This document shows positions 21,966-42,898 of a DNA stretch of 43,939 bases, one piece after another (the first letter of the stretch is position 1; each line of letters opens with the position of its first letter). Location: the NCBI GenBank assembly GCA_048941285.1, contig JBHLNS010000029.1, positions 1 through 43,939 of the forward strand, read 5' to 3'. The notes beneath the pieces are model-generated. The model had not been told where the DNA came from. It did no database searches and saw nothing but the letters and a program-made list of their open reading frames with translations. This DNA is from Promethearchaeota archaeon (GTDB lineage Archaea; Asgardarchaeota; Lokiarchaeia; Sigyniarchaeales; SOKP01). The position numbers and the translations under genes were made by a program.

Positions 21966-23843
21966 TTGCCAACAATTAATTATCCTTCTGAAGAGATTAT
22001 AAAACATCCAATTGGAGAAAAGAAAGATTATGATCATATTATCCTTTGGATGTTATACAATAACGAAGAATGTGAGTGGTCAGATTTTATACAGAAACCA
22101 CTTGAAATACCATCATCTTCTTTATCGCGTCATCTTATTGAATTAAGAAATGAAGGATATATTACTAAAATATCCAAGGGGCATTATCAAATCACGTCAG
22201 AAGGAAGAAAACGATTCCATGATCTGTCTAAAGCGGATTTAATGACTCGTAAATTGAGTTATCCTCCGGCTATAATTTTAAAGAGTGGAAGAAATTATAG
22301 AGATTGGATCCTGTGGATGGTCTATAATAATGCATATTGTAAATGGTCTGACTTTCTCGAAGAACCTCTTTCTATTAATCAATCATCGCTATCCAAAGAA
22401 ATAAATTTAATGTTAAAAAATGGATTTATTACAAAAGATCAAGAAACTAAGCAATACAATATAACTCATTTAGGAAAAAGAGAATATTCAAGAATGCTCC
22501 AAAACTATGATTTGGATCGTCAAACTATTTTAAACGAAGAAAGCAAACGTATAGAAAGTATAGCTAATAAAACTATAAAATTCTTCAAGAAATTTAAAAT
22601 AACAGACACACGTACTCAATTTAGATTTCTTAACAATATCATAAAATTAGATTACGAAAGGGTTAAACCAATGCTTAAAAACGAGGAAAATTTTCATAAA
22701 ATTCTATATTTTCTTTCATTAAATCATCCAAATCAATATCCAGACTTTATTACTCCTGAACAGTTTTCTAATAAATATGGGATTAAAGAGAATATGTTAA
22801 CCTATTATGTTGATGAAATTGTGCTAAATAACATATATCCAATAAAATTTTTCAAATTAGAAACAGAATTAGATAAACATTACTATTTTCAGGAGAATGG
22901 AAAATTAGAGACCATTATAAGAGCAATCACAGAGGATTATATAACCGAATACACCTATTTAAACAAATTATTTTCTAGAAAACTGGATCTTAATCTCATT
23001 ATCGATTCAATCTCAGAGGAAGTATGTACTTTTTTACTTGATAAAGATCTGATTGATACGCTAAAGAGTTTTTTACCAGATTACATCAATCACTTAGCTT
23101 ATAAAACCGAGACAAAGAGAGAATTTAGAGAATCATACGATAAATTAGAAGGATTAATATGGCAAAATATCTCAAATATTGTTGAAACACAGAGATTAAT
23201 ACATAAAGAAGATCATTATAAACAATTATTTGATGAAATTAATAGCAAAATAGAATCAAATCCAGAAAAAATCGAACTACATTATTCAAAAGTTCAACTA
23301 ATGATCTCTAATGCTGAATTTGATAACGCATTTAATTATTTAGATGAAATGATAACAATTTTTCCAAAACAAGAAAAGGATATTAGAATAAAAAAAGCTT
23401 CCCTCCTAAAGAAAAACAATGAATTCGAAGCGGGGTTTGAAATAATAAGTGATTTACTAATCAAAAATCCAAATGACATTGATCTCCTTGTCTACAAAGC
23501 ATATTGGTTGCAATATTTAAACAGAAAAGAAGAATCTTATGAAACAGTTCTTGACATTATAAATAGAAATCCAAATAAAGCTATCTATCATGATACTTAT
23601 GGAGAAATCTTGATGTACTTTGAGGAATACCAAAATGCAGTTAACGAGTTCCAAAAAGCGCTAGAGCTTGGAATTGAGGACTGGTATGTTCACCAAACTT
23701 ATATAAAATTAGGAATTTGTTATAAGGAGATTGGAAATAAGCAACAAGCAATTGAATTCCTTAGAATGGGAAAGAAGGATAATGATAATCAAAAATGGAT
23801 TACTATCGCAGATCTTTTTCTCGAAGAGATGAAAAGTATATAA
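21966..23843 (+). CDS. Transcription regulator with tandem winged-HTH (MarR-like) domains and C-terminal TPR repeats
   Basis: Two repeats YDHIILWMLYNN..C.W.DF...PL.I..SSLS..L...G.I.K..Y.IT..G; TPR helices (YHDTYGEIL..A...FQKALELG, KLGICY). Confidence 0.82.
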   Translation: MPTINYPSEEIIKHPIGEKKDYDHIILWMLYNNEECEWSDFIQKPLEIPSSSLSRHLIELRNEGYITKISKGHYQITSEGRKRFHDLSKADLMTRKLSYPPAIILKSGRNYRDWILWMVYNNAYCKWSDFLEEPLSINQSSLSKEINLMLKNGFITKDQETKQYNITHLGKREYSRMLQNYDLDRQTILNEESKRIESIANKTIKFFKKFKITDTRTQFRFLNNIIKLDYERVKPMLKNEENFHKILYFLSLNHPNQYPDFITPEQFSNKYGIKENMLTYYVDEIVLNNIYPIKFFKLETELDKHYYFQENGKLETIIRAITEDYITEYTYLNKLFSRKLDLNLIIDSISEEVCTFLLDKDLIDTLKSFLPDYINHLAYKTETKREFRESYDKLEGLIWQNISNIVETQRLIHKEDHYKQLFDEINSKIESNPEKIELHYSKVQLMISNAEFDNAFNYLDEMITIFPKQEKDIRIKKASLLKKNNEFEAGFEIISDLLIKNPNDIDLLVYKAYWLQYLNRKEESYETVLDIINRNPNKAIYHDTYGEILMYFEEYQNAVNEFQKALELGIEDWYVHQTYIKLGICYKEIGNKQQAIEFLRMGKKDNDNQKWITIADLFLEEMKSI

Positions 23844-23867
23844 GTACATCTGAAAAATATATCTTAT

Positions 23868-24026
23868 TTATTTTTCCTCTAATTTTGAATCACTAGTGTT
23901 ATTAATAATTTTATAGTAAGCAATATTATCGACAGGGGGTTTTCTCTCCTCTATTTCTTGGTCTTTAATCTCAAGAATTCTAGGATGTAAATCTTGAAGT
24001 TGTGAATCATCATTTTGTTTTTTCAA
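23868..24026 (-). CDS. Possible small hypothetical protein (52 aa, TTG start)
   Basis: Open frame LKKQNDDSQLQDLHPRILEIKDQEIEERKPPVDNIAYYKIINNTSDSKLEEK fills the intergenic gap; below ORF-track cutoff. Confidence 0.35.
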   Translation of the reverse strand: MKKQNDDSQLQDLHPRILEIKDQEIEERKPPVDNIAYYKIINNTSDSKLEEK

Positions 24027-24151: not shown

Positions 24152-25027
24152 ATGATTTCTAAAGTACTAATAATCATGTCAGGAGGGATTCTCTGCTATT
24201 CAAAGACATTTTTTGGACATATTGAAATTGAAGATGATTTTATAAGTGGATTTTTTACAGCTATCCATAATATCTCTGAGCAAATAGGTGGAGGAGAAAT
24301 AAAATCTTTGAATTTTAGAAACTTTAATATTATTTATTCCTACGATGATGATAAATTTTGTATTTTTATTTTACTTACGGATATCGATGATCCTGAGGAG
24401 GAAGTAAGAGAAAAATTACAATTAATGAAAAATGAATTCATAAAACGATATCGAAAAGATTTGATAAATTGGAATTCTGATATTGCCAAATTTGAGAAAT
24501 TTGATGAATTTGTAGAAGAAAATATATACATCCCTCCAAAAATATTGTTGGTTGGTGAAGTTGGAGTAGGGAAGACTTCAATATTGTATTTATTTCCAGG
24601 AGAGCTAATAATTGAATTGGATGATGATATGAATGAAATAATCCAAAAAACTATTGATATCTCTAAAATTACAAGATATAAAAAATGTTTATTGCGTGAA
24701 ATTGATTTAGAGGAACTTGTAAACAATTCAAAATTATATCAGCAACTATTAGATTCAGTAGATATAATTTGTTTAATTACTAGCTCAGGAGCAACAAATT
24801 TAGCAAACACTAAACAGTGGTTTTCATTATTAAAGCCAAAAGTGAAAAAGGGACAATTCTTTGTCATTGCGAATTTTCAAGATATGAAAAATATATCTTT
24901 TAAACCAAAGAAGATTGAAGAATTTTTTGGAGTGAAGACATTTGGGTTTTCAGCCATAGTTCCAGAAGCAAAAGAAAATATTTATTTAATTATGGATGAA
25001 ATGTTAAATAATATATTTCAAGAATAA
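24152..25027 (+). CDS. Longin/roadblock-like domain fused to an atypical small GTPase domain
   Basis: N-terminal ISGFFTAIHNISEQIGGGEIKSLNF; G1 GEVGVGKTS; G4-like ANFQD; G5-like FSAI; no DxxG. Confidence 0.8.
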   Translation: MISKVLIIMSGGILCYSKTFFGHIEIEDDFISGFFTAIHNISEQIGGGEIKSLNFRNFNIIYSYDDDKFCIFILLTDIDDPEEEVREKLQLMKNEFIKRYRKDLINWNSDIAKFEKFDEFVEENIYIPPKILLVGEVGVGKTSILYLFPGELIIELDDDMNEIIQKTIDISKITRYKKCLLREIDLEELVNNSKLYQQLLDSVDIICLITSSGATNLANTKQWFSLLKPKVKKGQFFVIANFQDMKNISFKPKKIEEFFGVKTFGFSAIVPEAKENIYLIMDEMLNNIFQE

Positions 25028-25043
25028 AATTTCAATACGTAAG

Positions 25044-25538
25044 ATGAAATTACAAGAAGATTTTGTGTTTCCAATTTATATTTATAAAGAAATACTTGAA
25101 GACATTAAATCATTATGCAGAAATTCAGAAGAAGAGATTTTCGGATATTTGATTGGTAATATTTTAAAATGGAATGAAAGAATATATACTGTGATCGAGG
25201 AATCATTATTTCTAATCGGAGCAGTATATAGTGATAAAACTTATACCTCTCAAATAGAGGGTACTGCGGGATTATATCAGAAAAAGTTTCAAAGAATTAA
25301 AAAAAAAAGAAACAATGATAATTTAAGAATTATTGGTTGGTGGCATTCTCATCCGAATTTAGGGTGTTTTTTATCTTCTACTGATTTATTAACTCAAAAA
25401 TATTTTTTTCCTGATGAATATCAAGTTGCTCTTGTTATTGACCCGGTTCGAAATGAATTTGAATTTTTTTGTATTGATAATAACACAAAAAAAGGCTACA
25501 AGCCATTAAGTTATGCTGTATTAAAAAACATTCATTAA
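25044..25538 (+). CDS. JAB/MPN+ (JAMM) metalloprotease, Rpn11-like deubiquitinase
   Basis: EIFGYLIG and GWWHSHPNLGCFLSSTD (E..HxHx7Sx2D), ALVIDP. Confidence 0.93.
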   Translation: MKLQEDFVFPIYIYKEILEDIKSLCRNSEEEIFGYLIGNILKWNERIYTVIEESLFLIGAVYSDKTYTSQIEGTAGLYQKKFQRIKKKRNNDNLRIIGWWHSHPNLGCFLSSTDLLTQKYFFPDEYQVALVIDPVRNEFEFFCIDNNTKKGYKPLSYAVLKNIH

Positions 25539-25546
25539 AAATAAAT

Positions 25547-26425
25547 ATGTCAAAAGAAAAAGACAACACTAAAGATTTCACTGTATATGGAATAGATTCT
25601 ATAGATTCAGATATATTTGATCGCCAAAAACGCATAAAAGGATGGAATCAAAGCAAAATTGCTGATTCAACAATAATGGTAATAGGAGCTGGAGCTATTG
25701 GTAATGAAGTTGTAAAAAATCTTGTATTAGTCGGGGTAGGCACAATTATTCTAATTGATTATGATTTTATTAATCCTTCAAACTTGAATCGCTGCCTTCT
25801 TTTCAATCTAGAAAATGCTGAAAAGAAAGAATACAAAGTGGATGCTGTAAAAAGTGCATGTCAAAAATTAAATCCAAAAGTAGAGATAAGAACTATTAAA
25901 GAAGATTTAAATGACATTGATAAAACACTTTATGAGAATTCTGATGTTATTTGTTCATGTGTAGATAATATTGAAGCGAGATTAGAAGCAAATAATTATG
26001 CATATTATTATGAAAAACCATTTGTAGATGCAGCAATTGATGAGTTCTTTGGTACAGTTCAATCAGTTTACTCGGAGGTGGAAGAAGCCCCGTGTCTTCA
26101 GTGTAATATTTCTGATATGGATTTAGAATTGATGTGGAAGAAATTCTCCTGTACCGGACAAGAAATTGACAATGAAAATGGTGAAACAATGGGAGTAATC
26201 CCTGCTATTATAACTACAACATCCATCATTGGGGGGTTACAAACACAACAAGTCTTGAAATTCATATTAGGACTTGAGTATTTCAAAGAAAAAAAGAATT
26301 GGGATCCAATTATTGGTCAACTCCTGATAGGAAAACAATTAAATTATAATGGACTTTTAAATAAATTTGAAGTTATAGAGAAATTAAAAAATCCAGAATG
26401 TTGGACATGTTCATTTAAAAAATAA
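25547..26425 (+). CDS. Ubiquitin-activating E1-like enzyme (ThiF/MoeB/E1 family)
   Basis: FDRQ, GAGAIG, DYDFINPSNLNR, CVDNIEAR, PCLQC, candidate catalytic FSCT, C-terminal CWTC. Confidence 0.93.
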   Translation: MSKEKDNTKDFTVYGIDSIDSDIFDRQKRIKGWNQSKIADSTIMVIGAGAIGNEVVKNLVLVGVGTIILIDYDFINPSNLNRCLLFNLENAEKKEYKVDAVKSACQKLNPKVEIRTIKEDLNDIDKTLYENSDVICSCVDNIEARLEANNYAYYYEKPFVDAAIDEFFGTVQSVYSEVEEAPCLQCNISDMDLELMWKKFSCTGQEIDNENGETMGVIPAIITTTSIIGGLQTQQVLKFILGLEYFKEKKNWDPIIGQLLIGKQLNYNGLLNKFEVIEKLKNPECWTCSFKK

Positions 26426-26454: not shown

Positions 26455-27021
26455 CTGCCGGAACTTCCTTATGAAATATGGAAAGATAGAATTGATAATG
26501 AACTAAATAATATAAAAAAGCTAGATGTTCTTGAAGAAAGTTCCATTAAAATGGATAATAATGGAGTAGATTTAATTTTAAATTTAACAGCTTTAGGTTT
26601 TGTTAAACAAGATAGTGATTTGACTCCAAAAAAATCTCATCGTGTATATCTAAAAATAAATCGTTCTTTTCCTTACCCTGGTGGAATAGATTTCTCATGG
26701 TTGTCGAGTATTTTTCATCCAAATATTCACCCAGTTGAATTATCCTTTTCAAGTGTAAAAGGAACTGGATATATTTGCCTGAACATTTTAAAGAAATGGT
26801 CACGTTTATCAGATTTGGTTACAACGATAAAAGCATTGAATATATTAATAGAGAATCCTAATCCTGAAGATCCTCTAGATTATCCTGAATGTATAGAAGC
26901 TGCAAACTACTTTAAAAAGCAAAGTATCGAGGAACTTAAGAAAAAGTATTCTATTGAAGAAGAAGATAAGGATGTAGAAAAAAGAGAAGATGATGACATT
27001 ATTATTATAGAGGATAAATAA
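26455..27021 (+). CDS. Ubiquitin-conjugating E2 (UBC) enzyme, probable CTG start
   Basis: FPYP, IFHPNI, GYICLNIL..WS, ENPNPEDPL. Frame stays open upstream of ATG 26551 to a TGA at 26446 and encodes the helix-1-like KDRIDNEL; CTG 26455 lies 6 nt after SD GAGGTGA. Confidence 0.9.
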   Translation: MPELPYEIWKDRIDNELNNIKKLDVLEESSIKMDNNGVDLILNLTALGFVKQDSDLTPKKSHRVYLKINRSFPYPGGIDFSWLSSIFHPNIHPVELSFSSVKGTGYICLNILKKWSRLSDLVTTIKALNILIENPNPEDPLDYPECIEAANYFKKQSIEELKKKYSIEEEDKDVEKREDDDIIIIEDK

Positions 27022-27026: not shown

Positions 27027-27290
27027 CTAATCTTTTAAACCACCTATAACTCTCGTCCATAAAATCAATTTCTGGTCCTCTTTAAGACCATATTTATGGA
27101 TAACATCTGCTATTGTAATCTTATTTGGTAGTTCTTTATTATTGAGAACTAAAGTATAAGAACGTTGCTCCGTACTGATAATACCCATATGTTTCACAAT
27201 TATATCAATTATTCTTTCAATATAATGATGATTTTTAACATCTAATTTAATAATTCTTCCAGTTCTTGAGTCCTCAACGGAAATTCTCAT
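27027..27290 (-). CDS. Ubiquitin-like protein, pro-form (GG followed by LKD)
   Basis: Beta-grasp pattern MRISVED..G.II.LDV....I..I....L..N.EL....TI....GLKE...L.L; ends RVIGG-LKD. Confidence 0.85.
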   Translation of the reverse strand: MRISVEDSRTGRIIKLDVKNHHYIERIIDIIVKHMGIISTEQRSYTLVLNNKELPNKITIADVIHKYGLKEDQKLILWTRVIGGLKD

Positions 27291-27390: not shown

Positions 27391-27624
27391 TCAACTAGAA
27401 TCAGTAGATCTACTCTCTTTTCTAGATATCAGATACCTAATAAATCCAATAAAAAAGGGAGTTATCCAAACAATTATAACCCAAACAGCTGCGTTAACTT
27501 TTCTTTTTTTAGCATCTCTATACACCCAAATTACTATAAAAATTAATATTGCATAAGGAATTATTAAAAAAATTAAAAGTAAAAATGGAATTAAGATTCC
27601 TATATCAATTTGTAGCATATACAT
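27391..27624 (-). CDS. Small membrane protein, PLDc_N-like (WVYxDAxxR)
   Basis: Two TM segments around IWVYRDAKKRKVNAAVW; ATG 27624 directly follows the upstream stop at 27626. Confidence 0.75.
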   Translation of the reverse strand: MYMLQIDIGILIPFLLLIFLIIPYAILIFIVIWVYRDAKKRKVNAAVWVIIVWITPFFIGFIRYLISRKESRSTDSS

Positions 27625-27625
27625 A

Positions 27626-28648
27626 TTATACGACTTGAATATCACTTTTATCTTCTTGTTTTTCTTTTAATTTCTTTTCATCAAAAGGGGTTTCGCAGAC
27701 CCAACAACTATTTTCTAAATTACTTAACGCATTCGAGCATCTCACACAATAAAGAACTTCGCATTCAGGACAAAGATAATTTAATCGTGAAACCTTACTT
27801 TTACACACAATACATCTTTTCTTTTCTATGGAAAAGGTAATATCTTCTTGCGCAATATTTATTGGTTTAGTAAATACAGTCATAAAATCCTGAAGCTCTC
27901 CACTTTCTGCATCTAAAGAAGGTCCAGAAGATCTAATCCTCTTAACCATTTGATATATAATATATATAATGACAAAGATAAGTACCACTACTGAAATTAA
28001 GATTATTATTAGACTTAAGATATTAAGAGGTAAATTCGTAAAAGTTGTTAAACTTAAAAAAGTAATAATGAGGGCAACTAAAGATATAATTATCCAGTTC
28101 GTAAATTTACTATAAAAAAACTCTATATTAATTAATAATGGCGAAGTTGCTATCAGAATACCAATAAAAACAAGAGAAGATGAAATTCCTGGTAAAAAAA
28201 CATTCAATGCTTTTAATACTGTTGCCTCAAAAGTCCATCCTATTAAAATCACGATAAGTCCTATTGCCATTATAGAAGAAATTGCTTTAAATTCAGCTTT
28301 TAATTTGATAGAAAACCAAACAAATATCAAACATAGAACTACTATATTGATAAATATATAAAAATAGGCAAACTCGTAGAAGTAATAAATAATAATATAA
28401 AATAAATTGTTTGTCAAAAATATACTTTCTATATCACCAGTATATGTCCCTTCTAACAGATAATCACTAAAGAATAAGAAAAATCTCACAATTCCAAGGC
28501 TAAACCATAAGCTTGCAAGACCATACAATAATAATTTTTCATGATCGATCTCTTTATTTTTTCCTTTACTCACGAAAAAGATCCCGCAGATAATTAATGT
28601 AAAAGCTGTTAAACTTGAGAGAAATCGTTCCAGAGGATTAAAAACAAT
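27626..28648 (-). CDS. Multi-pass membrane protein with C-terminal C4C4 RING-like zinc finger (candidate E3), probable ATT start
   Basis: About 7 TM, then C-x2-C-x10-C-x2-C-x4-C-x2-C-x10-C-x2-C. The frame upstream of GTG 28573 reads ATT-VFNPLERFLSSL, matching MVFDPIERFFSSM of paralog 38990. Confidence 0.82.
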   Translation of the reverse strand: MVFNPLERFLSSLTAFTLIICGIFFVSKGKNKEIDHEKLLLYGLASLWFSLGIVRFFLFFSDYLLEGTYTGDIESIFLTNNLFYIIIYYFYEFAYFYIFINIVVLCLIFVWFSIKLKAEFKAISSIMAIGLIVILIGWTFEATVLKALNVFLPGISSSLVFIGILIATSPLLINIEFFYSKFTNWIIISLVALIITFLSLTTFTNLPLNILSLIIILISVVVLIFVIIYIIYQMVKRIRSSGPSLDAESGELQDFMTVFTKPINIAQEDITFSIEKKRCIVCKSKVSRLNYLCPECEVLYCVRCSNALSNLENSCWVCETPFDEKKLKEKQEDKSDIQVV

Positions 28649-28733: not shown

Positions 28734-29279
28734 TTAAATAAGTTGAGATTTGAGATACAGATTTTCAATAATATCTTCAAATGCTTTATGAACTCCTTGC
28801 CCAGTTTTAGCGGAAGTTATATAATAACCAATAAAATTGTATTTATTAACTCTCTCCTGAATTTTAGTATGGTCTAGATTATCTAGATCAATTAAATCCT
28901 CTTTATTAGCCCAAAGAACCGTAGGTATGTCTCCACAGAATCGTTTAATCTCATCATACCAATTTTTAATATGTTTAAAACTATTTCTTCCAAGATCATT
29001 CTCTTCTAGACTATAAACAATTATTGCAGCATCACTGTTTCTATAGAATGATGGTCGTAAAAAATCGAGATCACGTTGTCCTGCAATATCCCAAAATAAT
29101 AATCGAATATGATCTTTATCAATTTGCTTATCGAATTTTGAAAATTGAGCTCCAATTGTCTCGACATAATCAGTTTCAAAAGTACCTAACGTGAACTTTT
29201 GAATGAGGGATGTCTTCCCTACCCTTCCGTCTCCAATTAATGTAATTTTAAACCGTAATTTTTTTCCAGAATTGCCCAT
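28734..29279 (-). CDS. Rab-like small GTPase
   Basis: G1 GDGRVGKTS, switch I TIGAQF, G3 WDIAGQ, G4 NKED, G5 SAKTG; no C-terminal prenylation motif. Confidence 0.93.
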   Translation of the reverse strand: MGNSGKKLRFKITLIGDGRVGKTSLIQKFTLGTFETDYVETIGAQFSKFDKQIDKDHIRLLFWDIAGQRDLDFLRPSFYRNSDAAIIVYSLEENDLGRNSFKHIKNWYDEIKRFCGDIPTVLWANKEDLIDLDNLDHTKIQERVNKYNFIGYYITSAKTGQGVHKAFEDIIENLYLKSQLI

Positions 29280-30514: not shown

Positions 30515-30585
30515 ATCTGTTATAAAAATAATTTTATTTCGAAAAAAAAAAAAGACTAAAAAAAAAGGAGTTATAATTTGATTAT

Positions 30586-32986: not shown

Positions 32987-33104
32987 AAAATGGAATAAAT
33001 TGAAGAAGATTATGTTTAACAATTGATCAGCTTTTCAATTATGAAAAATTTTGTTAAAATCGGTCGAATAATTATTAACAGAATCAAATTTTAAAAAAAA
33101 AGAA

Positions 33105-33215: not shown

Positions 33216-33914
33216 CTATTTTTTTCTCTTTCGAATAATTACAATCGCAATTATTATTGCAACTGCTCCTATTCCTGAGATTAATATTATCCATAGATAC
33301 AATGGCATCCCGGGAGCTACTGCAAGCGCGTTTGTTGATTCAAATTCATAATGATTCCAATCTGTTAGATGATTAATTGTTCCATTCACTAGGAAACCTT
33401 TAGTTTTTTCATACCAAAGTACACTTCCATAAGCATCCTCCAATTGCCAAACTCTCATAGTTTCATGCATCGCTTCACCAGTAACAGTGAATATAACGTC
33501 ACCATCAAAACCATGGACACACCTATATATATTACACATTTTCAATTGATCATTAATAGAAACATCAGTGTAAATCCAAAATACTGAATGATTACCTTCA
33601 AATGGGCCAAAATTTATTACATTTGATATAACTCTATTGGTAGTATTTATATCCCAATACCCAATATCATTAATAGGATATTTTAACCAATTCTCAATAT
33701 TAAACATATCATCTGATATCTTAGAAAACGTTAGGCTCATAGATATCTGTTGCCCTGGCATTGCTGAAAGAGTCAAAGTATGGTTAACAACCATGCCATC
33801 GAAGATCCCTACCTTATTAGAAATACCAATAGTAGAAAGGTGTGAAAAGAATATCGAAAATGTAATTAATATCAGAAAAAATTTCATTAAATTTGATTTT
33901 TTTATTTTTAACAC
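33216..33914 (-). CDS. Cell-surface hypothetical protein with signal peptide and C-terminal TM anchor
   Basis: Signal-like N-terminus, LWYEKTKGFLV motif, APGMP + TM + RKRKK tail. Start uncertain (the GTG is part of SD GGAGGTG). Confidence 0.75.
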   Translation of the reverse strand: MLKIKKSNLMKFFLILITFSIFFSHLSTIGISNKVGIFDGMVVNHTLTLSAMPGQQISMSLTFSKISDDMFNIENWLKYPINDIGYWDINTTNRVISNVINFGPFEGNHSVFWIYTDVSINDQLKMCNIYRCVHGFDGDVIFTVTGEAMHETMRVWQLEDAYGSVLWYEKTKGFLVNGTINHLTDWNHYEFESTNALAVAPGMPLYLWIILISGIGAVAIIIAIVIIRKRKK

Positions 33915-35938: not shown

Positions 35939-37285
35939 ATTTGTGCTAAAAATCTAAACTATCCTCCATCTGAAATAATAACTCCCTCGGGGATTGAAAA
36001 GAAGGATTTTGAATATATTATTTTGTGGATGCTAAATAACAATGAAGAATGCAATTGGTCTGACTTTTTAGATGAACCTTTAGCATTTAGTTTAGCTACA
36101 TTATCAAAATATATGAATCTGTTGATGAGAAATGGATTTGTAGGAAAAAAAGAGAAAGGAATTTATAAAATTACACCAGAAGGTCGTAAAAGATATTTTG
36201 ATCTAAGATTTAAAGATTCATTTGATAAAAAATTGAGATATCCTCCTGAAATTATCCTAAATAAGCGAAATTATGATCATATAATTCTATGGATGCTATA
36301 TAATAATGAATATTGTAATTGGAAAGATTTTCTTGAGAAACCACTATTGATTAATCATAATTCCCTCTCAAAATATCTAAAATTTTTATTAGAAAAGGGA
36401 TATGTAAAAAATGAAAATAATGAATATAAAATTACTGAAACTGGTGAATCCCAGTATTCAAAAGTTCTAAAAAAATATGAATTGGATTACCAATCAATTT
36501 TAAAGGAAGAAATTAGAAGACTTGAAGAAATTAAAGAAAAGGCAACAGCTTTTCTTGAAAATCATGAAATTGATAATGATGAAGTTAAGATTATATTTTT
36601 AGATTTAATAAACCATTTAGATTATTCTAAATCTGAGAAATTATTATCTTCGCAAGATGATTATTATAAAATTATTTTATTTCTTAGTATTAATCATCCA
36701 ATTCTATATCCAGAATATATATCACCCAAAGATTTTTCTTTAAATTTTGCTATTAATATCAACACTCTGAATTTTTTCATTCAGAAAATTATAGATGAGA
36801 ATTTGTACGGAATAAAATTCTTTAATTTGAATTTTGGCAGAAATTGTAATTACTTTTTCAGAGTAGATGAAAAATTCGAGAAAATGTTAAATTTGATCAT
36901 AGATGAAAATATAGTAAAATTTAGTTTTCTTCATAAATTGCAACCAAATACACCTGATGACGAAAAAAATATACAAACCATAAGTTTGATCGTAAATATT
37001 GCAGAAGACCTTTATAATAAATTATTTAATCAAGAAGTAAAGTCCTATATAGTAGAATTTTTACCAAAATACATCAATTATTTATATGGGAATTTTAAAA
37101 GAAGAGATTATTCTAATAACGTGATAGAAACATTCAAGGGTATGGTTTATGAAAATATAATAAATTTAGACTGGGATAAATATTATCCAATAATATTAAA
37201 GAAAGGATTAGTATCATCTCTTTTGAATGAATATCCCAAATATACGATCTTGGATGAACTTAAGAAAATATTGAAAGATCAATAA
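35939..37285 (+). CDS. Tandem winged-HTH regulator (paralog of 21966, no TPR tail); true start upstream of 36023
   Basis: In-frame upstream sequence NLNYPPSEIITPSGIEKKDFEYIILWML matches TINYPSEEIIKHPIGEKKDYDHIILWML. No in-frame ATG/GTG/TTG; ATT at 35939 is the candidate start. Confidence 0.8.
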   Translation: MCAKNLNYPPSEIITPSGIEKKDFEYIILWMLNNNEECNWSDFLDEPLAFSLATLSKYMNLLMRNGFVGKKEKGIYKITPEGRKRYFDLRFKDSFDKKLRYPPEIILNKRNYDHIILWMLYNNEYCNWKDFLEKPLLINHNSLSKYLKFLLEKGYVKNENNEYKITETGESQYSKVLKKYELDYQSILKEEIRRLEEIKEKATAFLENHEIDNDEVKIIFLDLINHLDYSKSEKLLSSQDDYYKIILFLSINHPILYPEYISPKDFSLNFAININTLNFFIQKIIDENLYGIKFFNLNFGRNCNYFFRVDEKFEKMLNLIIDENIVKFSFLHKLQPNTPDDEKNIQTISLIVNIAEDLYNKLFNQEVKSYIVEFLPKYINYLYGNFKRRDYSNNVIETFKGMVYENIINLDWDKYYPIILKKGLVSSLLNEYPKYTILDELKKILKDQ

Positions 37286-37425: not shown

Positions 37426-37680
37426 ATGATATTATCAGTTGAAGATACACGAGGAGGCAAGATAATAAAACTAGATGTCAATGAGAGACATTTAATTGAA
37501 AGTATTATAACTATTGTGGTTAAGCATATGAATATCATAACTTCTGAGCAACGTTCTTTTGCTCTAATATATAAAGGAAAAGAATTACCCAATTCAATTA
37601 CAATTGGACAAGTAGTTCAAGATTACGGTTTAAAGGAAAATGATAAACTAGAATTATGGGCAAAAGTAATTGGAGGTTAA
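37426..37680 (+). CDS. Ubiquitin-like protein, mature form (ends in GG)
   Basis: Close paralog of 27027; ends WAKVIGG-stop. Confidence 0.87.
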   Translation: MILSVEDTRGGKIIKLDVNERHLIESIITIVVKHMNIITSEQRSFALIYKGKELPNSITIGQVVQDYGLKENDKLELWAKVIGG

Positions 37681-37681
37681 C

Positions 37682-38707
37682 TTAATCTTTAAATTTCTTA
37701 AAGTCTTCAATAAATTCATCAAAATTAGAAGTTTTTGTCAGAATCCAATTTAGCTCTTTTTCAAATTCTCCTTGTTTGTACAAGTTAGCCATTTTTTCAA
37801 AAGCGGCTTTTATTTCCAAGTAATCATCATTACTAATACTAATTTCATTTGAATGCTCGAATTCCATGCTGATTTTTAGGATTTTGCAAAATTCTGAATT
37901 GCTTAATGCTAATAACCTTAATTTTGGATCTTGAGTAATTTTACTTGCTTGAATAAAATGATTCATAGCTTCTGAAAATTTGTTTGATTCTTTATACTCT
38001 TCTGCGTATACCATACATTCCCAAGCATTGCATAAATATTGTAAAGTTTGAATTTCCTCTCTTTCTACTGTATTGAGTTTCTTGAATTGAGAGGATATAT
38101 TTGAAAAAATGCCTACTGCATCTGCTCTATCTCCTTCTGTATCTAATTTTCTTGCCTTTTTAAGTTCTGACCATATTTGCCTGAATTGAGTTGATAAAGA
38201 CGTTTTCCCTTCTCTTGTTTTAATTGGTAATCTTATTATATCGTCAATAATGGAAACTATCCTTTCTTCAGAACCTTTTTGAATAGCAGAGAATGCATAG
38301 GTTTTCTCATTTAATATTTTTTCAATGTTCTTAGCTTTTACAACATCTTTTCTATCTTGAAAATTTGCAATTATAGAATATTTAACATCTGATACCTTTT
38401 TCTTTAAATCTGACAATAATTTTTGGGTATTTTTTATGTTATCCATAATGGAATTTGAGACTATGCAAATAATATCAGTTGATTCTAATAAATCTTTAAA
38501 AAAGTCATATTTATCAATCAATTCTTCTAAATCTATAACCCTTAAAATACAATTGTCACCATTTTCTAAGTTAGACACATTAATAGACTTCTTCAGAATT
38601 TCATTTAAGTTTAGGTCAATTTCTAAAATAATTTCTCCTGGGAATAAATTCAATATTGTTTGCTTTCCCACACCTTTTTCTCCGGTTAAAACAATTTGAA
38701 CAGGAAT
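37682..38707 (-). CDS. Atypical small GTPase domain fused to a helical-repeat (TPR-like) C-terminus, probable ATT start
   Basis: The frame upstream of GTG 38671 encodes IPVQIVLTGEKGVGKQT (full P-loop), bounded by TAA; ATT 38707 is 6 nt after SD GGGGTG. Shares LFPGE, IDLEEL, ANFQD and FSAI with 24152. Confidence 0.8.
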   Translation of the reverse strand: MPVQIVLTGEKGVGKQTILNLFPGEIILEIDLNLNEILKKSINVSNLENGDNCILRVIDLEELIDKYDFFKDLLESTDIICIVSNSIMDNIKNTQKLLSDLKKKVSDVKYSIIANFQDRKDVVKAKNIEKILNEKTYAFSAIQKGSEERIVSIIDDIIRLPIKTREGKTSLSTQFRQIWSELKKARKLDTEGDRADAVGIFSNISSQFKKLNTVEREEIQTLQYLCNAWECMVYAEEYKESNKFSEAMNHFIQASKITQDPKLRLLALSNSEFCKILKISMEFEHSNEISISNDDYLEIKAAFEKMANLYKQGEFEKELNWILTKTSNFDEFIEDFKKFKD

Positions 38708-38787: not shown

Positions 38788-38985
38788 TTATTTTCTTCCT
38801 TTTAGATATATAAGAATTCCCAATGAAAAAGGGATTAACCAAATTATTAATATCCATAAAAAAACATTTAATTTTCTTTTTTTCGCATCCATATATACCC
38901 ATATTGATAATGAGATTGAAACCACAAAGGTAATTACTAAAGAAATAATTAGAATTAAAAATATAAACTCAATCATTGAATTCAC
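38788..38985 (-). CDS. Small membrane protein, PLDc_N-like (paralog of 27391)
   Basis: IWVYMDAKKRKLNVFLW, two TM segments. Confidence 0.75.
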   Translation of the reverse strand: MNSMIEFIFLILIISLVITFVVSISLSIWVYMDAKKRKLNVFLWILIIWLIPFSLGILIYLKGRK

Positions 38986-38989: not shown

Positions 38990-39967
38990 TTAGCTTTTTT
39001 CAGTTTTTTTCTTTATAAATGGAGTATCACATCCCCAACAAGTATTTTTTAGATCAATTAAAGCATCATAACATTTTACACAATACCAAACTTCACAATT
39101 TGGGCAAATATAGCTCAAACCTGAGATTTTGTTTTTACAAACTATGCAAAATCCTTTTTCTCGGCTGTATTTAACATCTTCTACCCCGAATGTTAGAGGT
39201 TTTGTAAAGACTTTTATAGTATCTTGGAGTTCTTTCTTATTAATAACAGTTTCTCCCCTTCTTATATAAAAGTAAATTAAGTAACCGATGATTGAAATTA
39301 TTGTAAAAATTGCTATCCATATTATAACTAAAAGCAAATCTACTAATTGAAGATTAATGAACAAACTTGAAATTATAAATAACGCAAGTAAGCATATCAG
39401 AATCATAAAGATAGATTTGACAATTGGCTTTGAGAATAGCTCAAAATAAGTTAGTTGTGGAGAAGTAGCAATAAAAGCACCTATTACGATGAATATGGGA
39501 CTTATACTCGGAATAAAAAGATTTAAGTATTTAATAAATATCGCTTCTATACTCCATCCAACTAAAACTAGGACTAAACCGAAGCTTATGACTAAAGAAA
39601 TAACTTTAAACTCGGCATCCGATTTAATTGAGGATCTGATAAATAATAATATTATAATAATTATGCTAATAAAAATATAGAAGTATAGAAATAAGTAGAA
39701 ATATAAATAAATATAATTTTTAACGTCATATGTTAGAATAATTACATTTAAATCTCCGGTATAGGTTCCTATTAGGAAATAATCGATAATAAAAAAAAAA
39801 ATACGAGTCACAGCAATATTAAGCCAAAATCCTCCAAATCCAATCAATAATATTTTTTCATTTCTATCCTTTTCCTTTAATCCTTTAGAGAAGTACAGAA
39901 TACTGCAAACTGACAACACAAAAATTGCCATACTTGAAAAAAAACGTTCTATTGGATCAAAAACCAT
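38990..39967 (-). CDS. Multi-pass membrane protein with C-terminal C4C4 RING-like zinc finger (candidate E3)
   Basis: CIVC-x10-CPNC-x4-CVKC-x10-CWGC-DTPF; shared GTYTGD loop and FTKP with 27626. Confidence 0.82.
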   Translation of the reverse strand: MVFDPIERFFSSMAIFVLSVCSILYFSKGLKEKDRNEKILLIGFGGFWLNIAVTRIFFFIIDYFLIGTYTGDLNVIILTYDVKNYIYLYFYLFLYFYIFISIIIIILLFIRSSIKSDAEFKVISLVISFGLVLVLVGWSIEAIFIKYLNLFIPSISPIFIVIGAFIATSPQLTYFELFSKPIVKSIFMILICLLALFIISSLFINLQLVDLLLVIIWIAIFTIISIIGYLIYFYIRRGETVINKKELQDTIKVFTKPLTFGVEDVKYSREKGFCIVCKNKISGLSYICPNCEVWYCVKCYDALIDLKNTCWGCDTPFIKKKTEKS

Positions 39968-40142: not shown

Positions 40143-41129
40143 ATGGAGCGAAATTATAAAACAATATTTATAATAATAGACCTGATTTTCGTTTTTTCTA
40201 TATTAAGTATTCCCACTTTTATGATTTTTGCCAAATTTGGGGACTATGGTAAAATCCATCAGTCTCTCACATATAAATATACTTCAGATACTCCCCCACT
40301 TAAAAAAGAATTGAATCTAAATACTGATGTAGGTATAATCGATATACAATATGTGCCTTTATCAGTAGATTTTCTTGTCAGAATAGACATAGATATTGAA
40401 TTAGCAGGTCCTAACATAGGGAGTAATTCATACTTGGATTTCTTTAGTATAGGTTGGGAAAACTTAACATCTCCATTAAATTTCACATTTGTATTATTTT
40501 CTGACATGTTAGTAGATTTTTCAAAATTACACATAGCAAATATTAATATAAATATTCAGCTAAGAGAGGATATTATCTTTAGTTTAAATGGTTCTGTAAG
40601 CGAAGGAGCTATAAATGTCTCTGCATCGGGAATTACTTTTAATGATTTACTCTTAAATGTAATTGACGGTGATATAATTTATGATTTTACAAATTGTTAT
40701 ATTGAAGGTAATATATCTGGTATTGTTAATCATGGGAATATTACATTAAAAACTTATAATAACAAATATACTCACAAGAGTCATTTGACTCTAAATAATA
40801 GAATTGGCTATATTCTCTTTAAAATTATCCAAATTGAGGAAATGGAGGCTAATGTTACCGGGATTGGAATCACAAAAACTGGGATTATCTCAGTAATCTA
40901 TAAAGATTTTTCTCCCAATATTGGAGCTCGATTTGTATTTTTTAATGCAACAAGCCATGGTCATGAAACAGAAAATTCATGGGAGGGATTCGAAAGGTAT
41001 TATATACCACCAGATATCGGACAATACTATAATTCAACAGATTATCCTTCTCGAAATAATTATAATTTCTCTTTTTTTAAATGGGATGGGGGCAATTATC
41101 TGTGGGATCTCTATAGTATCCCAACTTAA
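40143..41129 (+). CDS. Membrane-anchored beta-strand-rich extracellular protein (paralog of 29474)
   Basis: LNLNTDVGII, SYLDFF, CYIEGNISG, TKTG, NIGARF, NSWEGFE, DLYSIP shared with 29474. Confidence 0.65.
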   Translation: MERNYKTIFIIIDLIFVFSILSIPTFMIFAKFGDYGKIHQSLTYKYTSDTPPLKKELNLNTDVGIIDIQYVPLSVDFLVRIDIDIELAGPNIGSNSYLDFFSIGWENLTSPLNFTFVLFSDMLVDFSKLHIANININIQLREDIIFSLNGSVSEGAINVSASGITFNDLLLNVIDGDIIYDFTNCYIEGNISGIVNHGNITLKTYNNKYTHKSHLTLNNRIGYILFKIIQIEEMEANVTGIGITKTGIISVIYKDFSPNIGARFVFFNATSHGHETENSWEGFERYYIPPDIGQYYNSTDYPSRNNYNFSFFKWDGGNYLWDLYSIPT

Positions 41130-41131
41130 AA

Positions 41132-42898
41132 TTAATCGTCTATATACACAAATTTTAGGATAAATCGCAATGGAGCACCATCCGTTGGAATCCCTTTTAC
41201 ATCTGAATCCCAGATATCATATCTTATAGGATTAGCTAAACAAACGACCGGAATGAGTTCTTCAACAAGACGTTGCTGAATATCAAAGTATAATTGCTCT
41301 CTAGTAAGTTCATTAAACTCTTGAAGAGCATCTTCCATCCATTGTTGTACCTGCGTATCATTGAAATTCCAAAAATTTCCGATCCCATCAAGTTTACTTG
41401 AATATAATGGGTTAATTACATCGACAGGGTCATTAGAAACGACCCCCCAACCTAGAGTCACTATGTCAAATTCCCCCTCATTCAATTTATACTCCCATAC
41501 TAAAGATCCCATTGAAGTTAGATTTACTTTTAATCCTATTTGTTTAAGATCTTCAATAGCTAGGTTAGCTGCTAATTCCATAAACAGGTTACAAACTGAA
41601 AAATTATATGTTTTCAGAGGTGAGGGGCTATTTGCCAATATTTCCCATTCATTTCCAGTGGATATATTATCATTTGCTGTTAAACCGTCTGTGCCAGGCC
41701 AATTAGCATTTAGTAGGATTTGTCTTGCTCTCGTTATATTATAATATGGTACATTAAAATCTTCCCAATTCGAATACTGCATCTGTTTTGCAAGAGGAGA
41801 TTTTGCTCTTTCTGCGTGCCCTCCCCACACTTCTTTAAGATAATGATTATAATTAAAAGCGTATGAGATCGCTTTTCTCATTGTAAGATTTATAATTTTG
41901 TTATTCATTCCAAAATACCATAAACTCATCATTTTTATCGGTACTACTGTAAATTCAGGATTTAATTTAAAATCATCAAGTGTGTTATTATCTCGATTCC
42001 CCCAAATATATGAAAGCTCTCCAGATAACATTCTTTCCATTCTTTCTGAAACTCCTAAATCTAGGAAAACTAATTTATTAATTGATGGTACTCCACCCCA
42101 ATAATCTGGATTAGCATGCATATGGGTTTCTGAGCTCTCGCCCCAATAATTTACATCACAACTGTCGAAAATGAAAGGCCCTGTTCCAACTAATCTTCCA
42201 GTTCTAATATCAATGAAATCATCTTCCGGAGTAGAAGTTGGTGAAAGTATATAAGAGTTCCAAAGGGCTAATAATTCCCTTATAGGAACATAAGGTTGGT
42301 TTAACACAAATTTTACGGTATAATCGTCAATTATTTCAGTACGGTTAATAATCGGTTCCCTTTCTGAATTTAGATAGGCAGATTCCCAAGCCCATATTTG
42401 ATCATAAGGCATAGTTTCAATAAATCTATAAATTCTCTCGAAAGTCCACTGAACCGCAGTAGCTTTAAAGGGTGTTCCATCATGGAAAGTAACATCCCTT
42501 CTTAGGTCACATGTGAAATTTAGGTTATCAGAACTCCAATTTCCATTTAATGCTAAATTTGGAACTATAGGTGTATCTGTATTGTTCTGATCATAAGCAA
42601 ATAAACCTTCTGCAATTTGATCTAATATTATCAGATTCTCATATGTTGGAACTGGATTTTTAAGTGGATCAATAGAATCGGGACCATCCGCTAAACCGCA
42701 CTTAAAAATAAACTCTGATTTTTCTTGTAATTCAAAAAAAAAGTAAACTCCACTAAAAACTGCGGCCAAGGCTATAATGCTTGTAATTCCTAAACCGATT
42801 TTTTGCTTTTTATTTAATGTTTGAAATATTTTTCTTTTTTTTTTAGGTTTAATTTCCCTTTCTGTCATTATTGATCCCTTTTTGGTCTTTATCTTCAA
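41132..42898 (-). CDS. Family 5 solute-binding protein with N-terminal membrane anchor (paralog of 30586)
   Basis: FTCDLRRDVTFHDGTPF, VGTGPF, MRKAISYAFN; start may be ATG 42868. Confidence 0.9.
   Translation of the reverse strand: MKIKTKKGSIMTEREIKPKKKRKIFQTLNKKQKIGLGITSIIALAAVFSGVYFFFELQEKSEFIFKCGLADGPDSIDPLKNPVPTYENLIILDQIAEGLFAYDQNNTDTPIVPNLALNGNWSSDNLNFTCDLRRDVTFHDGTPFKATAVQWTFERIYRFIETMPYDQIWAWESAYLNSEREPIINRTEIIDDYTVKFVLNQPYVPIRELLALWNSYILSPTSTPEDDFIDIRTGRLVGTGPFIFDSCDVNYWGESSETHMHANPDYWGGVPSINKLVFLDLGVSERMERMLSGELSYIWGNRDNNTLDDFKLNPEFTVVPIKMMSLWYFGMNNKIINLTMRKAISYAFNYNHYLKEVWGGHAERAKSPLAKQMQYSNWEDFNVPYYNITRARQILLNANWPGTDGLTANDNISTGNEWEILANSPSPLKTYNFSVCNLFMELAANLAIEDLKQIGLKVNLTSMGSLVWEYKLNEGEFDIVTLGWGVVSNDPVDVINPLYSSKLDGIGNFWNFNDTQVQQWMEDALQEFNELTREQLYFDIQQRLVEELIPVVCLANPIRYDIWDSDVKGIPTDGAPLRFILKFVYIDD

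Follow-up and report, generated by a model that had tools for sequence, protein, structure and literature searches.

Several archaeal ubiquitylation systems provide a frame for the locus analysed here. Caldiarchaeum subterraneum is described as carrying a eukaryote-like operon of ubiquitin, E1, E2, a small RING finger protein and an Rpn11-like protein (PMC5654768), and an active E1/E2/RING cascade is reported for Helarchaeia (10.1101/2023.07.25.550441). The Lokiarchaeal ubiquitin and ESCRT genes are presented as two separate regions (PMC9192718), and most Asgard ESP genes are placed outside conserved neighbourhoods (10.1101/2020.10.19.343400). A locus of the present type is absent from the passages of the latter two accounts that deal with Asgard ubiquitin and ESP neighbourhoods.

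The window, a stretch of 43,939 nucleotides from a Promethearchaeota archaeon, resembles the operons of Caldiarchaeum and Asgard archaea in that it clusters a GG-ended tag, a ThiF-type E1, a UBC-fold E2 (HPN and Cys), a RING-type finger and a JAMM protease. However, its RING-like finger sits at the end of a polytopic membrane protein, and the locus has further components: a longin-GTPase, a regulator with two winged helices, a small membrane protein and a surface D-P cassette. Its non-catalytic part moreover occurs in two copies whose tags have diverged. In our reading, which has a probability of about 0.7 with its duplication history and shared core included, the region holds a membrane ubiquitylation locus of the Lokiarchaeia type (Promethearchaeota) in two paralogous copies of ancient origin.

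The eukaryotic ubiquitin hierarchy comprises one E1, few E2s and many E3s, including membrane-bound RING ligases such as Hrd1 or the MARCH type, and the E3s share one ubiquitin. Likewise, one E1 and one E2 of the Asgard locus apparently serve several membrane-embedded RING-type ligases. Unlike the eukaryotic E3s with their common ubiquitin, each ligase here has its own paralogous tag.

Two paralogous modules

Each module contains a regulator (A), a ubiquitin-like tag (U), a divergent GTPase (G) and the genes S, R, D and P (Table 1), while the JAB, E1 and E2 Pfam matches in the window are confined to module 1. The paralogy proposed in the first-pass annotation is established by blastp, which recovers all seven pairs at 35-62% amino-acid identity: A1/A2 (38.5%, 387 aa, E 2e-89), G1/G2 (43.5%, 147 aa, GTPase domain only), U1/U2 (61.9%, 84 aa), S1/S2 (48%, 50 aa), R1/R2 (44.6%, 303 aa), D1/D2 (35.2%, 347 aa) and P1/P2 (41.7%, 573 aa). 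U, S and R occur in exactly two copies each in the genome, both in the window and none elsewhere. A1, which falls in an A1-type clade of 12 rows, is nearer to four paralogs outside the locus (48-54%) than to A2 (39%). The gene layout agrees with the exchange of tag and GTPase in position and strand in module 2, and the four minus-strand genes proposed to bracket the modules all have a hydrophobic N-terminus that resembles a signal or an anchor. The order A2-U2, G2-S2-R2, D2, P2 is the same in G007 (the closest relative of the window genome, G000), G006 and G015, and is partly seen in G011.

Table 1. Features of the two modules and their surroundings in the window.
Feature	Coordinates	Strand	Evidence
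X297, secreted or anchored flank of module 1	20883..21776	-	N-terminal hydrophobic stretch
A1, two winged-helix domains, middle domain, C-terminal TPR	21966..23843	+	HTH_34 2e-9; TPR_14, TPR_19 over cut-off
G1, longin domain and divergent P-loop GTPase	24152..25027	+	longin models match residues 1-125
JAB/MPN+ isopeptidase	25044..25538	+	PF01398 1e-11; HSHP...SSTD motif
E1, minimal ThiF-type activating enzyme	25547..26425	+	PF00899 4e-48
E2	26455..27021	+	PF00179 1e-9; probable CTG start; listed ATG ORF from 26551
U1, ubiquitin-like tag, precursor form (GG then LKD)	27027..27290	-	GG invariant
S1, small two-helix membrane protein	27391..27645	-	48% identity to S2
R1, polytopic membrane protein, C-terminal RING-like zinc finger, probable E3	27626..28573	-	8 invariant Cys
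Rab-like small GTPase, functional copy	28734..29279	-	Ras 1e-38
D1, membrane-anchored beta-helix ('toastrack'/putative-adhesin-like) ectodomain	29474..30514	+	35% to D2; fold from D2 model
P1, membrane-anchored family-5 solute-binding protein, Lys-rich cytoplasmic tail	30586..32289	-	SBP_bac_5 3e-54
Rab pseudogene, ancestral Rab position	32453..33022	-	tblastn
X232, secreted protein, C-terminal anchor	33216..33914	-	family adjoins A2 in relatives
X441, secreted right-handed beta-helix protein	34294..35619	-	Beta_helix 6e-8, NosD
A2, two winged-helix domains, middle domain, no TPR	35939..37285	+	HTH_45 9e-11; probable ATT start
U2, ubiquitin-like tag ending exactly at GG	37426..37680	+	62% identity to U1
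G2, GTPase domain and helical tail, no longin domain	37682..38707	-	43.5% to G1 GTPase domain; probable ATT start
S2, small two-helix membrane protein	38788..38985	-	paralog of S1
R2, polytopic membrane RING-like protein, probable E3	38990..39967	-	44.6% identity to R1; 8 invariant Cys
D2, membrane-anchored beta-helix ectodomain	40143..41129	+	AF2 pLDDT 89.6
P2, membrane-anchored family-5 solute-binding protein	41132..42898	-	SBP_bac_5 3e-65
X210, secreted flank of module 2	43188..43820	-	signal-like N-terminus

In gene trees of R, U, G, A, D and P, the module 2 genes each form a separate clade together with their orthologs in 3-5 congeners. Support is 100/100 for R2 (6 rows), the G2-type clade and A2, 92/93 for U2, and 100 for D2 and for P2 (4 rows). 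Since these clades hold orthologs of other species, the split of the modules predates those species. The duplication is therefore old. Comparison of G000 with G007 (NG86) gives dN/dS values of 0.04-0.14 in module 1 (S1 0.27) and, in module 2, of 0.07 (U2), 0.18 (R2), 0.19 (P2), 0.24 (A2), 0.26 (G2), 0.27 (D2) and 0.28 (S2); the values of A, G, R and U are roughly 1.5-2 times higher in module 2. Both modules are thus under purifying selection, and module 2 is maintained under somewhat weaker constraint than module 1.

Enzymes, tags, ligases and switches

The E1 has exactly one ortholog in each of 5 relatives checked (65-86% identity). In the E2, HPN and the catalytic Cys are invariant (7 sequences), and its profile matches solved E2s at 1e-7. 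Its N-terminal 32 aa are conserved upstream of the listed ATG, behind GAGGTGA, and translation most likely starts at CTG behind this GGTG-type ribosome-binding motif. A similar situation holds for A2, whose homologous N-terminus lies upstream of the listed TTG (ORF from 36023), and for G2, whose P-loop lies upstream of the listed GTG (ORF from 38671). ATT or ATC is kept behind GGTG in 6 A2 orthologs, and likewise at the start of G2 orthologs; both genes most likely start at ATT behind such a motif. The retention of these starts and motifs across orthologs points to regulated weak initiation rather than decay. The description of the paralogs as diverged but intact thus needs qualifying: all seven module 2 genes have open frames, but E2, A2 and G2 have no ATG, GTG or TTG at the homologous position.

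The C-terminal GG of the tags is invariant and the residue four before the end is R or K in all 14 sequences, features that would make the tags compatible with one E1. The family profile aligns to ubiquitin 7-76, and the match of U2 to Pfam ubiquitin (2e-4) is below the cut-off. The tag ends at GG in all 4 U2 orthologs (G000, G007, G011, G006). Maturation of U1 would require JAB, and U2 would need no processing because it ends at GG.

For the R proteins, the earlier assignment as RING proteins has its basis in the eight invariant Cys and in fold-level matches, and in none of 15 sequences does a Pfam match exceed its cut-off; the sub-threshold matches are C1_2 (14/15), DZR (7/15) and zf-C3HC4_3 (6/15). 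The top fold matches (best E 0.06) come mostly from RING domains of E3 ligases, and the HRD1 zinc finger is among the matches. Six long helices precede the finger of R1 in a low-confidence model (mean pLDDT 59.6), and the membrane domain shows no sequence relationship that we could find to any eukaryotic ligase. We consider R a probable E3 ligase. The S proteins share a conserved loop, WVY(R/K)DAKK (14 sequences), and the start of S1 overlaps the stop of R1 by 20 nt; we take S to be translationally linked to R.

Residues 1-125 of G1 match the longin models Fuz_longin_1 and Clat_adaptor_s with TM values of 0.84-0.88, and its Roc match is below the Pfam cut-off. The P-loop and the NFQD/SAI-type motifs are invariant across 10 sequences. 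The G2 orthologs carry Q, L or V at the P-loop position where Ser/Thr is expected, and G2 may lack GTP hydrolysis. Its tail has no Pfam family and is not recognised by Pfam as TPR, which does not sustain the former label of GTPase-TPR. The tails of A1 and G2 have no detectable homology (hhalign probability 0.3%); hence no helical-repeat tail moved between regulator and GTPase.

History of the modules and their core

As a rule, genomes of the genus carry one cognate core. The tag is found in 42 of 54 genomes, with 2-4 matches in 13 of those, and the cognate E2 in 43 of 54, including every genome with the tag. There is one E2 match in 41 of these 43; the exceptions are G010, with two end-of-contig halves, and G057, with three matches. 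A single cognate E2 is present in 12 of the 13 genomes with 2-4 tag copies, and one E2 match accompanies one E1 ortholog in 5/5 relatives. G057, having three cores and three tags, is either an exception to the single-core rule or a mixed bin. In the single contig of G006, JAB-E1-E2, U and R lie at 2.666-2.670 Mb, and two modules without a core are located some 680 kb away, at 1.984-1.996 Mb. As the window genome is 94% complete, another core might have escaped assembly. Contig C41 bears a further, unrelated ubiquitin operon, which encodes a ubiquitin of 110 aa, an E1 of 419 aa, JAB, an E2 closer to the canonical type (UQ_con 2e-24) and a membrane protein whose tail is rich in Cys. Thus, the statement that the catalytic core was kept single is true of this family only.

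The claim that only the specificity components were duplicated is not upheld by the arrangement in G002, which has the module 2 order with the core inside (A-U, E2-E1-JAB-G-S-R, D, P) and a G2-type G, nor by the core tree, which splits into two lineages at odds with rpoB and conflicts with this single marker for G002 and G024. Both observations fit a duplication of whole operons with later loss of redundant cores, and the disagreement in G002 and G024 would also allow interspecies transfer. The whole operon was probably copied before the sampled congeners diverged; an inversion of the G...U segment would then have taken place in one of the two copies, and this inverted copy would subsequently have lost its redundant E2-E1-JAB.

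A partial segmental duplication, in which the non-catalytic genes alone were copied and module 2 was always coreless, would agree with the lack of internal E1, E2 and JAB in the module 2-clade (IIb) loci of the 5 genomes examined (G000, G007, G006, G015, G011). We regard it as unlikely, because the sister arrangement of G002 keeps E2-E1-JAB between U and G, one inversion and one deletion convert the module 1 order into that of module 2, and two core lineages not following rpoB would be predicted had there been more than one core in the past. Service of module 2 by the C41 operon instead of the module 1 core is very unlikely: although C41 encodes a complete Ub/E1/E2/JAB set, identity to the module 1 enzymes is only 26% for its E1 and 32% for its E2, its ubiquitin has no detectable similarity to U1 or U2, which are 62% identical to each other, and the copy number of U tracks the loci of this family, with the cognate E2 wherever U occurs. 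It is hardly credible that module 2 is a decaying, functionless leftover. Its higher dN/dS, the non-canonical starts of A2 and G2, the atypical G2 P-loop, a nearby Rab pseudogene and a G014 tag copy with four stops would suit such decay, but the seven open frames, dN/dS of 0.07-0.28, order and content kept in 4-5 species and conserved ATT/ATC starts with GGTG motifs argue for maintenance.

Surface cassette and working model

The D2 model resembles toastrack (DUF4097)/'putative adhesin' proteins, matching 4qrk ('putative cell adhesion protein', Foldseek E 4e-8), 3pet, 4opw and 3ljy and other 'putative adhesin' entries with E values of 4e-8 to 2e-3, although the TM-scores are low (0.28-0.49). 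The DUF4097-like label of D is supported by this fold and by sub-threshold Pfam matches in 5 of 19 members, the commonest weak match, but no member passes the cut-off. To our knowledge, the toastrack family has no known pairing with a solute-binding protein and a ubiquitin ligase. The nearest relatives of D1 (48%) and P1 (66-67%) are in G024, and for D1 this is not the syntenic gene of G007. Between G000 and G007, R1 is 92% identical, D 32% and P 43%, which indicates that the D1-P1 cassette was swapped.

The Rab is 88% identical to that of G007, which sits after P there. The pseudogene is 76-77% identical to the Rab (76% over 178 aa by tblastn), and its DNA is 75% identical to the P-Rab junction of G007. 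Its frame is interrupted by a stop, and it shows G->E in the P-loop and Q->H in switch II; this decayed second copy was missing from the first-pass annotation. Syntenic orthologs of X297, a protein with no Pfam family, adjoin A1 in G007 (88%) and G003 (49%). A gene of the X232 family adjoins A2 in G006, G007, G011 and G015, and in the window X441, which has orthologs in G007 and G011, stands between. X210 has an ortholog at the same place in G007 (81%).

We infer a receptor role for the surface genes. They might instead be mere neighbours, with the ubiquitin genes acting on cytoplasmic targets and no receptor involved, which is possible, if rather unlikely. The independent exchange of D-P relative to R would suit this view, but D-P stands beside R in 8 of 9 genomes mapped (G011 shows only a D fragment at a contig end), with three tandem pairs each in G008 and G024, D2 and P2 co-descend with R2, and the window was found to contain neither an ABC permease nor an ATPase gene with which the P proteins could form a transporter. 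A conflict or recognition system (defence, partner or kin recognition), with the fast-changing surface cassette as its specificity part, appears quite improbable. It would account for locus proteins 45-90% identical between species at an RpoB difference of at most about 0.02 changes per site, for cassette swapping, tandem arrays, copy-number variation and pseudogenes, and for domain-level matches of E1 and JAB to CBASS-type models. However, PADLOC models are matched by only 4 of 22 proteins, namely E1 and JAB through shared domains and A1 and A2 through CARF/Csa3/CasR-type and PDC-S02/LmuC-type winged-helix parts (best E 3e-5); U, S, R, G, D and P have no PADLOC match, and nuclease, TIR or other effector genes were not found in the window.

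In the membrane ubiquitylation locus that we favour, core sharing between the modules is inferred: one E1 and one E2 would charge both U1 and U2, and each membrane E3 would attach the tag of its own module to targets near the membrane, for which our leading candidates are the cytoplasmic tails, rich in Lys, of the P proteins. The D-P cassette would serve as input, and the GTPase and regulator as switch and output. If the core is shared, the Asgard locus follows the core-sharing logic of eukaryotic cells.

Composition and constraint of the two modules

The window, which is the entire contig C40 of a 3.55 Mb genome in 101 contigs (G000, 94% complete), has a GC content of about 24-34%, and its proteins are placed by the Atlas in the Promethearchaeota (Asgard archaea). 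According to the ORF listing and Pfam, module 1 reads A1(+) G1(+) JAB(+) E1(+) E2(+), U1(-) S1(-) R1(-) Rab(-), D1(+), P1(-), and module 2 reads A2(+) U2(+), G2(-) S2(-) R2(-), D2(+), P2(-), where A is a winged-helix regulator, U a ubiquitin-like tag, G a GTPase, S a small membrane protein, R a polytopic RING-like protein, D a membrane-anchored beta-helix protein and P a family-5 solute-binding protein. All seven paralogous pairs claimed in the first-pass annotation were recovered by all-against-all blastp. They are collinear, and module 2 forms clades in the gene trees of R, U, G, A, D and P, as is characteristic of the segmental duplication of a module.

Genome-wide tblastn finds two copies only of U, S and R in G000, both in the window modules. 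A third, distant copy of D is present (28%), and the next relatives of P and G reach at most 31% and 26%, respectively. A1 is closer to four paralogs encoded on other contigs (48-54%) than to A2 (39%). Three of these four, both C92 copies and the C4 copy, have a Rab-like GTPase gene beside or near them, within about 3 kb, which looks like a family of regulator-Rab gene pairs outside the ubiquitin locus. The module content drawn up in the first pass left out the X232 family of secreted proteins, whose members stand beside A2 in four relatives (G006, G007, G011 and G015); in the window, another secreted-protein gene, X441, intervenes. The first half of the window also carries hexapeptide-repeat (left-handed beta-helix) domains in four genes, two of them adjacent.

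Sequence identity between the modules (all-against-all blastp) and dN/dS of each gene (Nei-Gojobori, G000 vs its closest relative, G007)
Gene	Identity, module 1/2	Aligned length (aa)	dN/dS, module 1	dN/dS, module 2
A	38.5%	387	0.14	0.24
G	43.5%	147	0.13	0.26
U	61.9%	84	0.04	0.07
S	48%	50	0.27	0.28
R	44.6%	303	0.11	0.18
D	35.2%	347		0.27
P	41.7%	573		0.19
JAB			0.10	
E1			0.14	
E2			0.11	

Both modules are under purifying selection, and module 2 is somewhat less constrained. Of the relaxed selection on module 2 that would have told against the first-pass account, a mild rise in dN/dS is what appears; purifying selection persists. The same account called the paralogs intact, which requires qualification. 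E2, A2 and G2 have no ATG, GTG or TTG where their relatives begin, although their frames are open upstream and encode the conserved N-terminal residues, and one Rab copy has decayed. An ATT or ATC at the corresponding position is kept in six A2 orthologs and four G2 orthologs. We read the CTG and ATT codons as probable, real non-canonical starts and not as damage, and the conservation at A2 and G2 suggests deliberately weak or regulated initiation.

The decayed Rab copy has lost the P-loop glycine and the switch II glutamine. In G007 and G003 the sole Rab follows P, corresponding to the position of the pseudogene, and the functional Rab of the window, 85% identical to that of G007 by DNA comparison, now lies between R1 and D1. 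The functional copy has been relocated beside R1. Among the DNA contigs of four sequencing runs compared to the window, those of run X1 match it without differences, including the decayed Rab copy and the ATT at which G2 probably begins; the X1 pieces listed do not reach the corresponding codons of E2 and A2. Since X1 is possibly the source sample, the match shows no more than that the Rab stop was not introduced by a single assembler.

Locations of the features discussed
Feature	Location	Strand	Details
Hexapeptide-repeat genes	window 4909-6678, 15650-17407, 17940-18890		
E2, probable start	window 26455		CTG, six bases behind GAGGTGA
D1-P1 pair	window 29474-32289		
Rab-like pseudogene	window 32453-33022	-	in-frame stop; P-loop G to E; switch II Q to H
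A2, probable start	window 35939		ATT, behind GGTG-type motif
G2, probable start	window 38707	-	ATT, behind GGTG-type motif
A1-type winged-helix-TPR genes	G000 C92 4429-6330, C92 9320-11263, C4 23399-25330, C8 5855-8374		
Second ubiquitin operon (locus L028)	G000 C41:1-6100		Ub 110 aa, E1 419 aa, canonical E2, JAB 275 aa; winged-helix protein; membrane protein with C-terminal ubiquitin domain; membrane protein with Cys-rich RING-like tail
Tandem D-P pairs (three each)	G008:C32 58976-67867; G024:C41 89941-100106		
Tandem longin-GTPases (G1-type)	G008:C32 72054-75184; G024:C41 102767-105858		three, between A1 and JAB
JAB-E1-E2, U and R of G006	2.666-2.670 Mb		genome in a single contig

Enzymes, tags and membrane components

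Module 1 carries the features of an archaeal, eukaryote-like ubiquitylation system: a tag of ubiquitin fold with the C-terminal GG, a ThiF-family E1, an E2 that has both the HPN motif and the catalytic Cys, and a JAMM protease. Pfam scores exceed their cut-offs for E1 (PF00899, 4e-48, 164 bits vs a cut-off of 28), the UBC-fold E2 (PF00179, 38.3 bits vs 27) and the JAMM/MPN+ protease JAB (PF01398, 45 bits vs 22.5), in which the HxH...S..D motif can be read. The E2 profile matches solved E2s at 1e-7, and H88, P89, N90 and C108 are invariant across seven sequences. The C-terminal GG of the U family is invariant in 14/14 sequences, and a basic residue four positions from the end is kept in U2 and in all 14 family members. 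The family profile aligns with residues 7-76 of ubiquitin, to its last residue, scoring E 0.04 against single ubiquitin and down to 2e-20 against polyubiquitin chains; the Pfam ubiquitin model gives 2e-4 for U2, below cut-off, and no match for U1. U2 stops at GG in four orthologs, whereas U1-type tags bear 1-4 extra residues; therefore, only U1 would require the JAB protease for maturation.

R is probably a RING-like E3. Its eight invariant Cys residues follow a RING-like spacing (C-x2-C-x10-C-x2-C-x4-C-x2-C-x10-C-x2-C), its profile matches TRIM37 in the PDB (E 0.011), and most of the Foldseek matches listed are E3 RING domains (best E 0.06 for a model of pLDDT 59.6). No Pfam zinc-finger model exceeds its cut-off in the 15 members scanned; the matches below it are C1_2 (14/15), DZR (7/15) and zf-C3HC4_3 (6/15). 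The AF2 model of R1 contains several long membrane helices, with a mean pLDDT too weak to describe the membrane domain. PDB profile matches of the membrane part to Cys-loop channels (E about 0.005) were taken as hydrophobic noise.

The Atlas model of the N-terminal region of G1 (residues 1-125) has a longin fold, with TM 0.84-0.88 to the Fuz_longin_1 and Clat_adaptor_s clusters, both sides being predicted models. G1 has a P-loop, the Pfam Roc model reaches 21.4 bits under a cut-off of 27, and the GTPase profile matches Arf in the PDB at E 0.01; no DxxG motif was seen on motif inspection of the longin-GTPase. G2 is without the longin domain and has a helical tail of no recognisable family, for which an Atlas search returned leads below 0.85 only. 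In the G2 clade, the Ser/Thr after the P-loop Lys is replaced by Q, L or V, and in one ortholog (the Type IIa protein of G006) the lysine itself is lost, so these proteins may be pseudo-GTPases. It had been proposed that one helical-repeat tail is common to A1 and G2, but hhalign detects no relationship between the TPR of A1 and the tail of G2 (probability 0.3%), and the movement of a single tail between the genes was rejected. G1-type genes occur as three tandem paralogs in G008 and G024.

D2 is modelled with high confidence (pLDDT 89.6) as a beta-helix like 'putative adhesin' structures (Foldseek probability 0.97-1.00, E 4e-8 to 2e-3, TM 0.28-0.49). DUF4097 (Toastrack, PF13349) exceeds its Pfam cut-off in 0/19 D members, and is the commonest weak match of the family (5/19, best E 0.019). 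P1 and P2 contain the SBP_bac_5 domain (3e-54 and 3e-65) and are anchored in the membrane, with a tail rich in Lys on the cytoplasmic side; a Pfam scan of 40 window ORFs detected no ABC permease or ATPase family. D1-P1 is not orthologous to the syntenic pair of G007 (D 32%, P 43%, vs 92% for the adjacent R1), and its nearest relatives are in G024. This exchange, together with the tandem D-P arrays of G008 and G024, identifies the surface cassette as the fluid part of the locus.

Descent of the modules and of the enzyme core

In a search across 41 relatives, full-length R1 matches were confined to the same genus, several genomes having two or three nearby copies. The 15 locus regions compared from eight congeners fall into three lineages: Type I, with A1-type regulator and longin-G1 (G000, G007, G003, G008, G024, G015); Type IIa, with a G2-type GTPase and an R close to R1 (G002, G006, G011); and Type IIb, which is module 2 (G000, G007, G011, G006, and twice in G015). 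Type IIb forms a clade in the trees of R (100/100, 6 rows), A (100/100, 6 rows), U (92/93), and D and P (100, 4 rows each), and the G tree separates G2-type from G1-type (100/100). These multi-species clades imply that the genes of one module travelled together and that the modules split before these species diverged, in agreement with the old duplication of common-origin paralogs proposed in the first pass. Among ten congeners (L033-L042), RpoB diverges by no more than about 0.02 changes per site, compared with identities of only 45-90% for proteins encoded at the ubiquitin locus; the latter is evolving much faster than this housekeeping gene.

In each of five relatives, E2 gives a single match and E1 has a single ortholog (65-86% identity), other ThiF genes being at most 36% identical. 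Within the genus, U is found in 42/54 genomes, with 2-4 matches in 13, and the cognate E2 in 43/54: 41 genomes have a single match, G010 has two halves at contig ends, and G057 has three matches. From these counts, E2 is single in 12 of the 13 multi-U genomes. Class-wide, the module 1-type E2 occurs in 73/161 genomes and 9/30 genera, single except in G010 and G057. G006 encodes its core beside U and R, with two coreless modules about 680 kb off. In G057, the sole genome with three cognate E2 matches, each lies beside a Ubl (C22, C13 and C76) and one E2 has a stop; this represents either three full cores or a mixed bin (contamination 6%).

The genome also carries a second ubiquitin operon on contig C41, which encodes a complete set unrelated to the module 1 core. 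Its E2 (UQ_con 2e-24) was missed by tblastn with the module 1 E2 and found by Pfam, and therefore the single E2 is claimed for the module 1 family only; to that extent the proposal of a core kept single stands, whereas the genome as a whole has another set. U2 is without similarity to the C41 ubiquitin, shares 62% identity with U1 and retains the basic residue, so that the module 1 enzymes remain its likely partners.

How module 2 came to be without a core can be approached from gene order. The order in G002, U(+), E2 E1 JAB G2-type S R (-), D, P, equals that of module 1 with the G...U block inverted, and deletion of the three enzymes from it yields module 2. In the concatenated JAB+E1+E2 tree, G000, G007, G003 and G011 form a clade that matches the rpoB DNA tree, but G024 pairs with G008, and G002 with G006 and G015, while rpoB joins G002 and G024 (100/100); rpoB is a single marker, taken as DNA since the RpoB protein tree was unresolved. 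The conflict hints that more than one core lineage was once present and differentially lost. Transfer between species is an alternative explanation of it. Taken together, the G002 order and the conflict make duplication of a whole operon, followed by inversion and loss of the core, more likely than copying of non-catalytic genes only. Hence the first-pass idea that specificity parts were duplicated around one retained core keeps its single core, and the copying of the non-catalytic genes alone is disfavoured.

A possible membrane-based signalling network

The locus is not a known defence system. Only four of 22 proteins matched PADLOC models: E1 and JAB at the domain level (CBASS-type E1-E2 and JAB models), and A1 and A2 weakly (best E 3e-5) through the winged-helix parts of CARF/Csa3/CasR, PDC-S02 and LmuC. 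U, S, R, G, D, P and E2 matched no PADLOC model, and NCBIfam named nothing specific for the locus proteins. In systems of the CBASS Cap2/Cap3 type, E1 and E2 are fused and are accompanied by an effector or a cyclase, whereas here E2 is a separate gene.

Our best guess is a membrane-based ubiquitylation channel in which the ligase would act on membrane-proximal lysines, the P tails being candidate targets, and the D-P cassette would supply the input. More broadly, each module may be a self-contained channel, made of a surface sensor cassette, membrane RING ligase, orthogonal tag, GTPase switch and DNA-binding regulator, within a ubiquitin signalling network that is small, modular and based at the membrane, with one shared E1/E2/JAB writing and erasing all tags. 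We regard this network as a tentative proposal, with roughly one chance in four of being correct. The literature as far as accessible, including parts of 10.1101/2023.07.25.550441, PMC9192718 and 10.1101/2020.10.19.343400, yielded no account of this locus or of module multiplication, which is not proof of absence.

If true, the network would be a prokaryotic case of both eukaryotic hallmarks, i.e. many E3s per E1 and ubiquitin diversified into tags, with such signalling linked at the membrane to switches of the longin-GTPase kind. The ubiquitin genes of Asgard archaea are usually treated as a single Ub/E1/E2/RING/JAMM set tied to ESCRT. Beyond that set, the ligase-plus-tag part is multiplied here (genomes of the genus have between 1 and 4 tags) with a single core, and the multiplication sits at the membrane, beside longin-GTPases and surface proteins. 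With two tags and two ligases to a single E1 and a single E2, the locus offers a compact test system for the divergence of tag and ligase specificity after duplication. If the sharing is real, the hierarchy of one E1 with several E3s and tags originated in archaea, or emerged there in parallel.
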